Assembly (NCBI GenBank): GCA_039588275.1
Contig: JBDHAC010000005.1
Span: 34,309-98,308 of the forward strand
DNA from: Gemmatimonadota bacterium
GTDB taxonomy: Bacteria; Gemmatimonadota; Gemmatimonadetes; Palauibacterales; Palauibacteraceae
Reading direction: 5' to 3'
Length of the DNA: 64,000 nt
Under the pieces are notes generated by a model. It saw nothing but the letters and a program-made list of their open reading frames with translations, was not told the DNA's origin and made no database searches. Positions 54,421-58,114 of the stretch are shown here, in pieces. Each line of letters starts with the position of its first letter. The first letter of the stretch is position 1. Position numbers and translations under genes: made by a program.

Positions 54421-54767
54421 CGACCGGACCGCCGCGTCGGACGGCGACGCCGGTCCCGATCGCGAGCCTGACCCCGGTTGCGAGGTTCCGGCGTCGCTCA
54501 CGAGCCACAAAGCGTACGGCGATGTGGATGTGGAGCCACACGCCGCGTCGAGAATCGGGCCGGCGGCCAACGCCGCCGCCACTCGTCTGGCGGCGTAACC
54601 TAAGTAGTAGTATTCGATTATGGGGCCAACCGGCGGACTGACCGACCGCCCCCGCCGCCGGCACCGGACCAGCATCCGTCCCCCCCAAACACGCCTCGAG
54701 GTGTCGAGACCAGGCCGGCGCGCCGATCACTAGGCGCCGCCGGGCGAGGTGGGGGAGGAGGATGACG

Positions 54768-54947
54768 ATGCGTCGGTTCCTAAACACGCTTTGGCGGAAC
54801 ACCGCAGGGCAGGATGTGACCGAATACGTGCTGCTCCTGGTGCTCATCGCCCTGGCGATCTCGGGCGGAATGGTGCTGGTGTCGAATGGGATCAACAATG
54901 GCTTCGATGACGCGGCCGGGACGCTCGACGGGCAGATAGGCGCCTAG
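54768..54947 (+). CDS. Flp family type IVb pilin
   Basis: G|QDVTEY cleavage/Flp motif followed by hydrophobic helix; GGAGGAGG RBS (alternative ATG 54762). Confidence 0.9.
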   Translation: MRRFLNTLWRNTAGQDVTEYVLLLVLIALAISGGMVLVSNGINNGFDDAAGTLDGQIGA

Positions 54948-55372
54948 CTCCGACGGCTGCCGGAGCTGCCAGCGCGGCCACCTGCCAGTCCATAACGGGT
55001 TGTCACCGCGACACTTGCGGCGACAGCCCGTTCTCCTTTGAGGCCAGGACGGCCAGTAACGTGCCCACCGGCGTCGATCCGACACCTCGACCGTCGCCGA
55101 GTCGCTCTCGGCCGCCGAGACCACACTAGGAGGATCCGGTCAACAGGTGGAGCGAGGAATCGTTGTGCGCGCCCCACACATCTCGCGAGTCGACATCGGG
55201 CGACACCAGCATAGACCGACGCGCAACGTCCTTGTTGACACGGCATTACGCATTCTGGCACAGCGGGGGCCGAAGTGGTCGGACGAAGGTACGGATCCTT
55301 CATACCCACCACCTCGCCTGCAAACCGCTCGAGCAGCTCAGGTGTTCACAAGTCGATCGACGGAGGGTGAAA

Positions 55373-55555
55373 ATGCAGCAGTTTCTGCGCAACCTTTGGA
55401 GCGACGAGTCTGGTCAGGACGCTACGGAGTACGTCCTGCTCGTCGTGCTGATCGCCCTGGCAATCACGGCCGGAATGACCGTGCTTGCCACGGGGATCAA
55501 TGGCGCGTTCAGCAACGCCAGTAGCACGCTGAACACCACGACTGGTGGTTCCTGA
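55373..55555 (+). CDS. Flp family type IVb pilin
   Basis: DESG|QDATEY motif plus hydrophobic helix; GGAGG RBS. Confidence 0.92.
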   Translation: MQQFLRNLWSDESGQDATEYVLLVVLIALAITAGMTVLATGINGAFSNASSTLNTTTGGS

Positions 55556-55683: not shown

Positions 55684-56181
55684 CTACGGTACGGACGTGT
55701 AATGCCCGTGGATGCAGAGCCAACGATCTCCTTCCCGCACGAATATTCGCGTCGACTTCCCGCGGCTCGTCATTCGCTCACCGTCCACCCAGCCCGAGTC
55801 GGTCCAGTAATAGACGATCCACGCCACATCGCCTCGGATGGTAACCTCGGGTTGGTGCATCTCGGTATGCACGGCCCGCGCGCGCTGCAGATAGTCCGCG
55901 ATCCCCCGCAGCTCCAACTCCTTCCCCCGGGCCAGGTACACGTCGCTCTCGCCGAAGGCCATGAAATCCGGGTGGATGTAGCTCACGTACCGGTCGAGGT
56001 CGCCGCTTTCGATCGCGTCCCACATCGCGATCAGGGTCTCCCTCACCTCCCGAGCCGCGTTGACATCGGTCGGCGACTGCGCGAGCCCCGTGCGGGGTAC
56101 CAGCAGTGCGAGCACGAAGAGGGTGAGATGCCGCAAAAAGAACAGGGGCAGGTGCCGCGAGGGGTTCGATAGTGAGCGCAT
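55684..56181 (-). CDS. Exported NTF2-like (DUF4440/SnoaL-like) protein
   Basis: Signal peptide; GDLD, GDVAW, STRIFVR...WLCIHGHY. Confidence 0.85.
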   Translation of the reverse strand: MRSLSNPSRHLPLFFLRHLTLFVLALLVPRTGLAQSPTDVNAAREVRETLIAMWDAIESGDLDRYVSYIHPDFMAFGESDVYLARGKELELRGIADYLQRARAVHTEMHQPEVTIRGDVAWIVYYWTDSGWVDGERMTSRGKSTRIFVREGDRWLCIHGHYTSVP

Positions 56182-56329
56182 CGGTAATCACCTCCAGATC
56201 CCAAAAGGCTGTCCGCGCCCGCATCCTTGCGGCCCCTCGAGCCGATGTCCAGCTTCCCACGGCGGCCGGCTGTCCCGTCGTGGACCGCCGTCTCACTACA
56301 GTCTCAGGCGCTTACACGCGGACGGAGCC

Positions 56330-56929
56330 ATGAACGATACGACCTCACCGACAGATGATGTCTATTCGATGGACGAGTTCGAGCAGGACCTGAAAAAAGC
56401 CAAGGGAGGGCGGCGCACGCTCTGGTTCCTGGCCGGTCTTCTCATCGGAATCGCGGGGACCCTGGTGCTGCCGCCGCTCCTGCGGCCCTATCTGCCCGAC
56501 TCGCTGCGAGGATCACAGGAACTGGCCATCGGTCCGGTCCTCGCCGAGCAACGCGAGGGTGACCGGCTGCTGCTGACGGTGCAGGCGGAGCAGGGGGCCA
56601 TGCTCGCGACGTTCACCGAGCGTGTCCCGGAAATCGACCTGTTGGTGGGCGTTGGCGACACCGTGACGCTCGGGGTGCCACGCTACCAACCGTTCGTGGA
56701 GAACCCGAGCTTCGAAGGCGTGAAGAAGGCGGACTCGACCAGCGAGGGGCCGAGCACCGACCAGGCTGGCGCGGACGAATCCGGATCTGATGACGCTACA
56801 CAGGAAGGAGCGGTGTCTGAATCCGGGTCCGATGAACCCGGGCGAGATGAAACCCCCGGCCCGATCGAGCCCGACTCCGCCGAGGCGAGCGCCGCGGCGG
56901 AAGGGGACTCCGGGGCGGAAGGAAGCTGA
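56330..56929 (+). CDS. Hypothetical single-TM protein with acidic low-complexity tail
   Basis: GGAG RBS; TM LWFLAGLLIGIAGTLVL; D/E/S/G-rich C-terminus. Confidence 0.75.
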   Translation: MNDTTSPTDDVYSMDEFEQDLKKAKGGRRTLWFLAGLLIGIAGTLVLPPLLRPYLPDSLRGSQELAIGPVLAEQREGDRLLLTVQAEQGAMLATFTERVPEIDLLVGVGDTVTLGVPRYQPFVENPSFEGVKKADSTSEGPSTDQAGADESGSDDATQEGAVSESGSDEPGRDETPGPIEPDSAEASAAAEGDSGAEGS

Positions 56930-56982
56930 AGGAGCGCTTCGCCGCTCCCGCCCCGGGTGCCCAAATCTGCTCAGGGCCGCGT

Positions 56983-57507
56983 CTAGCGGCTCTCGTATAC
57001 CTCCGTCGCGCCTGACTCGTCGAATGTGAAGATGTCGTACGGATCGACCCGATCACCCATCTCCATACCGGGTGATCCGATCGGCATCCCGGGCACGGCC
57101 AGCCCAACCACCGCGGGTCGCTCCTCCAGAAGCCGAGTCACGACATCCCCGGGAACGTGCCCCTCGATCACGTAGCCGTCGACGGTCGCCGTATGGCACG
57201 ACTCCAGATGCCCAGGAACCCCATGCTCCGCCTTGACGGCCGACAGCTGGTCCGTCTCTTCCACTTCTACGTTGAACCCCATCGCTCGTAGGTGCACCAC
57301 CCACTGATTGCAGCAACCTCAGTCGGGGGCCTTGTACACCCGGATGGTGGCGTTCGCGAGCTGCACGCTGCCTTCTTGCAGCACCGGCGCGGGCGCTGCC
57401 CCCTCTTCCGCCGCTTGGGAGCCGTCCGCACCGCCGCACGCGGCGAGTGCCCCTCCGAGCAGCAGAGTCATCGGGACGGATCGTCGGTTTGACACGTTTC
57501 CTCCCAT
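56983..57507 (-). CDS. DUF411/CopG-type metal-binding lipoprotein, candidate selenoprotein (in-frame TGA at 57321-57319)
   Basis: AAGGAG RBS; lipobox LAAC; VYKAPD-TGA-GCCNQW..HL continues in frame to SCHTA, IEGHVP, GLAVPGMP.GSPGME. Confidence 0.85.
57281..57318 (-). promoter_or_regulatory. Putative bacterial SECIS hairpin
   Basis: After UGA: lower stem GUUGCU/AGCGAU, upper stem GUGGGUG/CACCUAC, apical loop GUG starting 22 nt after UGA. Confidence 0.6.
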
Positions 57508-57748
57508 GCTTTCTCCTTGATGTGGGGCGGGCTCTGGCGCGACCCGAGCCCCCCCCACCGGATTCGAGAACGGCCCAAAATAAGACATGGCCAGCGTGTA
57601 TGGTACCGAAGGGTCTGATCTGGTGTAGGGAGGCTCCGAGCCGAACCAGGCATCCAAGCGTGAAACACGGTTCTCAGGAGCCGGGCTTTGGACGCGGTAT
57701 CCGAGCGGATCGCGCGCTCCAAGCGGCCGTCGAGCAGGGAGGCGCCGA

Positions 57749-58114
57749 GTGGAATTGGAGATCAAGCGTTTCGAGTCCGCCGACGAAACGCGGACCTTCG
57801 AGGCCGGAAGCTTCGATTTGATCACCCTGGGCGGAATGACGCTCGGGCGGGCCACGTATCAGCCAGGGTGGAGGTGGTCCGAGCACGTCGGACGGACGAT
57901 CGGTGAGAGCAGCTGTCAGGTCGAGCACATCGGCATCGTCGTTGCCGGCCGCGCGATGGTAGCGATGGATGACGGAACCGAGATAGAGCTCCGAGCCGGC
58001 GATGCGTTCGCGATCCCGCCGGGCCACGATAGCTGGGTCGTCGGGGATGAGCCCTACACCTCGCTTCATCTGTTGGGCGCCGAATCGTACGCCCGAACCG
58101 AAGGAGCCGACTGA
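57749..58114 (+). CDS. Cupin domain protein
   Basis: QPGWRWSEH, CQVEH, GD.F.IPPGHDSWVVGDEP; GGGAGG RBS. Confidence 0.9.
   Translation: MELEIKRFESADETRTFEAGSFDLITLGGMTLGRATYQPGWRWSEHVGRTIGESSCQVEHIGIVVAGRAMVAMDDGTEIELRAGDAFAIPPGHDSWVVGDEPYTSLHLLGAESYARTEGAD

Follow-up and report, generated by a model that had tools for sequence, protein, structure and literature searches.

An in-frame UGA, very probably decoded as selenocysteine, in a CopG/DUF411 lipoprotein gene of a Gemmatimonadota bacterium

The gene considered here raises the question of whether an in-frame TGA, located where the copper protein CopG has the first cysteine of its CxCC motif, is a stop, an error or a selenocysteine (Sec) codon, and what selenium might do at such a site. 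The gene lies in a 64,000-nucleotide stretch of contig JBDHAC010000005.1, hereafter the window. Its features, and the selenoprotein genes detected elsewhere in the same genome (G000), are collected in Table 1.

Table 1. Features of the CopG/DUF411 gene in the window and further selenoprotein genes of the window genome
Feature	Coordinates	Strand	Basis
CopG/DUF411 lipoprotein gene, UGA read through, 174 aa	56983..57507	-	translation, Pfam, 6wis alignment, model
In-frame TGA, codon 63, predicted selenocysteine; first position of U-G-C-C (UxxC)	57319..57321	-	alignment
Ribosome-binding site AAGGAG, 5 nt before ATG	57513..57518	-	sequence
Predicted lipoprotein signal peptide, residues 1-23, then lipobox Cys24 (LAAC)	57436..57507	-	by eye and regex
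Cys65 and Cys66, remainder of CxCC	57310..57315	-	invariant in aligned homologues
Pfam DUF411 core with Cys104, His105, His117, Met141, Met148	57064..57207	-	Pfam and alignment
bSECIS-like hairpin, 7-bp stem, GUG loop 57297-57295	57288..57304	-	published rules
Inverted repeat, 16-nt arms, 5-nt gap, immediately upstream of the ribosome-binding site	57522..57558	.	repeat search
Inverted repeat, 12-nt arms, immediately past the stop, overlapping the end of convergent ORF 56060..56929	56910..56956	.	
DUF3179 gene, in-frame TGA	G000:C15:2097-3248		motif and family
AhpD-like gene, in-frame TGA	G000:C28:37085-37717		motif and family
AhpD-like gene, in-frame TGA	G000:C46:22068-22823		motif and family
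AhpD-like gene, in-frame TGA	G000:C35:11975-12694		motif and family
SelW-like gene, in-frame TGA	G000:C55:9074-9532		motif and family
ArsC gene, in-frame TGA	G000:C30:37048-37635		motif and family
FdhA gene, in-frame TGA	G000:C6:115429-116631		motif and family
SelD gene, in-frame TGA	G000:C4:94346-95272		

Reading frame and gene layout

Translation of the minus strand from 57507 to 56983 yields one reading frame of 174 codons, in which the TGA (context VYKAPD*GCCNQW, the asterisk marking the TGA) is the single internal stop, the gene's own stop being a TAG at 56985-56983. The ORF track cuts the gene in two (57319..57855 and 56983..57300) though it is a single frame, an observation of the original prediction that was reproduced. 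The gene had also been described as otherwise intact, and the ribosome-binding site, the lipobox and the motifs SCHTA, EGHVP and PGMPIGSPGM are indeed all present. The protein matches Pfam DUF411 (PF04214) over residues 101-148 (E 3e-26; 91.4 bits against a curated cut-off of 27), and a genome search identified its gene as the sole DUF411 gene found in the window genome. The sole solved relative by sequence is CopG of Pseudomonas aeruginosa (PDB 6wis, E 2.4e-33), in which the first cysteine of CGCC aligns with the TGA codon, the very position that had been deduced from the DUF411 motif. By inspection, the N-terminus contains a predicted export signal, composed of a basic N-region, a hydrophobic stretch and the LAAC lipobox, and export with lipid anchoring of the product is quite probable.

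Alternatively, the TGA could be a nonsense mutation or an assembly error in a pseudogene, or translation could yield just the portion that follows Met76. A possible start codon occurs no more than 40 codons past the TGA in 90 of 91 TGA genes, and short versions of this kind are stored in databases: the best two database matches, with 91% and 86% identity, begin at Met76, past the motif, bearing out the expectation that standard pipelines truncate the gene. However, a product starting at Met76 would be devoid of the signal peptide and of the entire motif, and within the genus purifying selection acts on the sequence before the TGA as well as on that after it, the synonymous to non-synonymous codon differences being 12-15:9 and 20-25:8-13, respectively. 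The same TGA is found in both of the other genomes of the genus (2/2). Support for the TGA in sequence data, another point raised at the outset, comes from a 550-nt assembled contig of public run X1 that spans it with zero mismatches, X1 being a possible source sample and hence not independent; run X2 covers small parts only, outside the TGA. Among the public runs listed, no RNA data set was found to contain the sequence, a result that carries no weight as to expression. Its presence in the two related genomes and in the X1 contig argues that the TGA is neither chance nor a private error.

The AGGAG and the ATG are conserved in both genus relatives (2/2). The inverted repeat past the stop, which is without a U-run, is a possible terminator; searches near the gene returned neither a sigma-70 promoter nor an intrinsic terminator nor an Rfam family. 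The genes around it encode, according to Pfam, a cupin, an amidohydrolase and a SnoaL protein, and one ORF has no family assignment; the gene order is conserved across the genus. Two imperfect direct repeats without an Rfam match lie within 57627-57754, between the CopG gene and the divergently oriented cupin gene. The product of the convergent ORF (56060-56929, plus strand) has a single hydrophobic segment and an acidic tail; the ORF has no Pfam match and is syntenic in the genus. A Flp/Fap pilin gene is located at 55163-55555 (Pfam), and a stretch resembling it some 600 nt upstream (about 54757-54872), with a cross-match in relatives, is possibly a second pilin copy.

Selenocysteine machinery and alternation of TGA with cysteine codons

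The Sec machinery, which the original prediction had named as something to look for, is complete in the window genome: selA (E 5e-132), selB (above cut-off), selC and selD were all found, and the tRNA-Sec scores 75.7 bits with anticodon UCA. The selD gene carries an in-frame TGA of its own, with a G-started triloop hairpin at +21, the same layout as in the CopG gene. As no tRNA other than tRNA-Sec has the anticodon UCA (tRNA-Trp has CCA, tRNA-Cys GCA) and release factor 2 is encoded, UGA is not generally reassigned. These findings bear on the idea that the UGA is read as Cys or Trp through a changed genetic code or plain read-through. Insertion of Cys would also yield a working protein, as the TGA aligns with Cys, but the tRNA complement and the release factor speak against such a reading, as does the fact that TGA forms track selB and a bSECIS-like hairpin (see below), and we consider it highly improbable.

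The window genome is selenoprotein-rich. It was scanned with a loose motif filter (1985 candidates, 70 listed), which samples rather than exhausts the selenoproteome; family search confirmed seven of the eight candidates examined as further selenoprotein genes of known type (loci L250-L256, i.e. those other than SelD in Table 1), and the remaining one (candidate C3) was dropped as it matched no family.

Within the order, 59 DUF411 homologues were found in 53 of 61 related genomes, the window genome counted. The codon corresponding to codon 63 is TGA in 30 of them, TGC in 27 and TGT in two, with no other codon, and the TGA genes are spread over 28 of the 53 homologue-bearing genomes; the TGA/Cys alternation among relatives that had been proposed as a check is therefore present. 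Genome G014 contains one TGA copy and one Cys copy (L263 and L284), and G050 and G060 contain two TGA copies each. A selA match was obtained in all 61 genomes, although it is weak in the incomplete genome G057 and fragmented in G056 and G058. Cys65 and Cys66 are invariant in the order-level TGA genes (30/30), and this remainder of CxCC is likewise invariant in 180 of 180 aligned rows, a figure partly imposed by the search pattern.

Beyond the order, the 80 best tblastn relatives in a genome collection comprised 77 Cys and three TGA forms, because this search favours the Cys spelling. The collection was also scanned with the DNA pattern P-x-TGA-G-C-C-x-x-W-x-x-H, which returned at least 120 stretches, and 77 of the 80 examined are full-length DUF411 genes. 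Judged by their record labels, the TGA-CopG genes come from about eight lineages (Acidobacteriota, Gemmatimonadota, Rokubacteria/Methylomirabilota, Binatia, Burkholderiales, Chloroflexota, Tectomicrobia and Desulfuromonadales). A few labels conflict with the tree and may be wrong: L132, L137 and L204 are labelled Streptomycetaceae, Bordetella parapertussis and Bifidobacteriaceae, respectively, and for L132 and L204 the labels are doubtful, as these two fall among Burkholderiales and Acidobacteriota genes, owing to mislabelling or transfer. With TAA or TAG in place of TGA, the same pattern gave eight stretches in the whole collection, none of which is DUF411 (0/8), and when the TGA was placed at the second Cys, in a stricter pattern, two stretches resulted, again without DUF411 (0/2). 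The recurrence of TGA at one codon in about half of the order-level genes and in the 77 collection matches, where TAA and TAG never occur, argues against a pseudogene, and a broken or shortened gene is in our view very unlikely.

The distribution of selB follows that of the TGA. Of 50 genomes with the TGA form, 45 have a selB match above cut-off, compared with three of 50 with the Cys form, the two sets being unmatched in lineage and containing non-independent kin. The TGA set represents 50 of 57 non-Gemmatimonadota loci, seven near-redundant Vicinamibacterales having been left out, and the Cys set the first 50 of 68. Among the five TGA genomes without selB over the cut-off, four have tRNA-Sec and three selA, and at least one of selB, selA and tRNA-Sec was detected in 49 of the 50. 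Genome G076 (L154) has a TGA gene adjoining copper genes, yet selA, selB and tRNA-Sec were not found in it; it is likely an incomplete bin. A tree of the CopG genes (quick method, 123 columns) leaves 83 of its 177 inner branches open and requires 12 changes of the Sec/Cys label; only one of these is forced by starred branches, so that neither one origin nor many is shown.

The hairpin downstream of the UGA

The published bSECIS rules (loop of 3-9 nt with G first or second, stem of 4-16 bp, spacing of 16-37 nt, energy at or below -7.5 kcal/mol), as given in the available part of PMC13188914, were applied with our own script. By these rules the window gene has a hairpin whose loop lies 21 nt after the UGA and whose energy, -7.5 kcal/mol, is exactly the threshold; the stretch encodes Q-W-V-V-H-L. 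Such hairpins are found in 54 of 91 distinct TGA genes as against four of 89 Cys genes; the strict rule excludes 37 of the 91, and relaxing the energy limit to -5 still leaves 15 without a hairpin. In the order alone, whose genes were collected independently of the pattern, 26/30 TGA and 6/29 Cys genes have a stem of 5 bp and a loop beginning with G. Folding over codons +4..+13 in the order, compared with synonymous-codon shuffles, gives a mean z of -1.91 for TGA and -0.17 for Cys genes, and in nine other codon ranges treated in the same way no comparable excess of TGA over Cys genes was seen. Residue 71, which falls in the loop, is Gly or Val in 26 of the 30 TGA genes and Asp or Glu in 25 of the 29 Cys genes of the order, which implies that the hairpin alters the protein.

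It is this contrast across genes that carries the weight, not the window hairpin alone. The window gene reaches z -1.14 against synonymous shuffles, and its 73-nt stretch folds no more stably than dinucleotide-shuffled sequences (z +0.52). Covariation is confined to one pair (A-U/G-C at +19/+27), RNAalifold gave no consensus structure for 41 multi-phylum sequences (-0.09 kcal/mol), and the stem is partly imposed by the coding of W-V-x-H-L.

Taken together, the TGA/Cys alternation, the machinery, the TAA/TAG control, the co-occurrence with selB and the hairpin contrast make it very likely, on sequence grounds, that the UGA at codon 63 is decoded as Sec, and the core of the original prediction is in this way supported by machinery, alternation and hairpin alike. 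SelB would read the hairpin directly after the UGA and insert Sec at this codon, and the predicted product would be a membrane-anchored, exported protein with a thioredoxin fold.

The copper site and comparison with known systems

A structure model with Cys in place of U (pLDDT 95.8) superimposes on CopG (6wje/6wis) with a TM of 0.93 and an rmsd of 1.3 A; the next matches are NrdH/glutaredoxin-like folds with TM about 0.45. CopG is described, in the available parts of PMC7558416 and PMC8456105, as a periplasmic thioredoxin-like protein that holds a tetranuclear Cu cluster via CxCC and two Met, and that is proposed to oxidise Cu(I) and then hand copper on. The corresponding residues of the window protein are U63-G-C65-C66, M141 and M148, and the residues of the DUF411 core listed in Table 1 are invariant in 91/91 TGA and 89/89 Cys rows. 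The impression that TGA forms have lost a third Met (M150) was rejected as an artefact of Cys-set sampling, the order alone giving 4/30 against 4/29. For CutG of Rhodobacter capsulatus, the CxCC and Met motifs are reported as dispensable for CutO activity (PMC8456105, in the part available), so that the role of even the Cys form is not settled.

By homology to CopG, copper binding with Cu(I)/Cu(II) chemistry is likely for the window protein. The first Cys presumably bridges copper, the selenolate would take its place as a ligand, and Sec-CopG would handle copper redox outside the cytoplasm. The reading as a whole, SelB-dependent Sec in an exported CopG lipoprotein with a selenolate in the copper site, appears likely as well. 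With more reserve we lean towards its widest form, in which Sec bridges metals of a multinuclear copper cluster as a natural Cu-Se site active in copper redox outside the cytoplasm, and the family, widespread and uncatalogued, has repeatedly been gained or lost, the Sec and the Cys version coexisting among relatives that use Sec (G014 has the two).

Linkage of DUF411 genes to copA, cusCBA or multicopper oxidase genes is common, not obligatory. No copper gene adjoins the window gene (neighbour ORFs, Pfam), and the copper ATPase and oxidase homologues of the genome are on other contigs. A copper-type neighbour (seven families, within 3.5 kb) is found at 17 of 91 TGA loci versus 34 of 89 Cys loci, with flanks of only 1.5 kb for 30 loci; reading the lower linkage of TGA forms as a changed function was discarded, because lineage and flank length are not the same in the two sets. 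The main rival explanation draws on the 74 TGA loci, the window's included, that are without such a neighbour: the protein would be a true selenoprotein, but a general exported selenol/thiol oxidoreductase (UxxC, glutaredoxin-like fold) or one acting on another soft metal. The NrdH/glutaredoxin proteins ranking next after CopG in the fold search agree with this, as does the U at the N-terminal CxxC position, shared with the thioredoxin-fold selenoproteins in the available part of the inventory (PMC13188914). However, at the 30 order-level loci Cys forms are equally without copper neighbours (0/13, versus 2/17 for TGA forms), and their absence is thus not tied to Sec. The His and Met residues outside CxxC are kept in every TGA form, two of the Met being described as Cu ligands (PMC8456105, available part). 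In addition, all nine genes of the Burkholderiales-type TGA clade (L132, L134, L137, L144, L165, L182, L192, L193 and L201) adjoin multicopper oxidase and cupredoxin genes, with CusF at seven of the nine, which makes this clade the best locus type for the question of a copper role. A general oxidoreductase therefore seems unlikely to us, and a copper-handling Sec-CopG is preferred.

The original prediction did not recognise the family among the classical bacterial selenoproteins. This agrees with the 119-family inventory of 2026 (PMC13188914), in whose available part, by table and term search, DUF411, PF04214 and CopG do not appear; the families of Haft and Tolstoy 2025 do appear in the table of that part. 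Term searches of the deep-Sep main text and its four supplements, and of the Haft and Gwadz preprint, gave no DUF411/CopG, and literature listings for CopG with selenocysteine or Gemmatimonad with selenoprotein held nothing relevant. No literature joining DUF411 with a selenoprotein was found in a search mostly outside subscription papers; the text and supplements of Haft and Tolstoy 2025 may bear on the matter. NCBIfam 20.0 gave no match to the window protein at E <= 1, and among the best 120 of 5762 database proteins none has U or X, while 117 have Cys. Sec-CopG is thus apparently a family widespread in uncultured bacteria and uncatalogued, and the bacterial selenoproteome would gain a family that is common among uncultured lineages of sediment, soil and water and that databases store as fragments without the active site. 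As the structure of CopG with copper is solved, the Sec/Cys pair offers a direct test of selenium versus sulfur at a metal site, possibly a natural copper-selenolate cluster, no such site having been found in the literature searched. If the copper role is true, Sec-CopG would connect selenium supply with copper tolerance in these bacteria.

Nothing in the way the UGA would be decoded is unusual, and there are earlier examples of Sec in proteins that handle metals. In the available part of PMC13188914, a cation-transporting ATPase (UxxC), the SO_0444 Cu/Zn efflux transporter (UxC), CopZ-family (2Fe-2S) proteins and a mercuric transport protein are predicted selenoproteins, which places Sec at metal-binding Cys of metal-resistance proteins; these are other families, and none is listed there as a multinuclear copper-cluster protein. 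The UxxC thioredoxin-fold selenoproteins of the same source (Trx, Grx, DsbA-like and arsenate reductase-like) have in common with the window protein Sec at the first CxxC position, Cys homologues and a hairpin directly after the UGA, but the window protein differs from them in its UxCC motif and in that its Cys counterpart forms a metal-cluster site. The closest known systems are P. aeruginosa CopG (DUF411, PF04214; PDB 6WIS, 6WJE) and R. capsulatus CutG (47-48% identity, TM 0.93), which share with the window protein the position of CxCC, SCHT, EGHVP, the two Met and export, predicted in our case. Unlike these, the window gene has TGA with a SECIS-like hairpin as its first Cys codon, is located outside any copper operon, and encodes a protein with a lipobox in contrast to their soluble periplasmic form.
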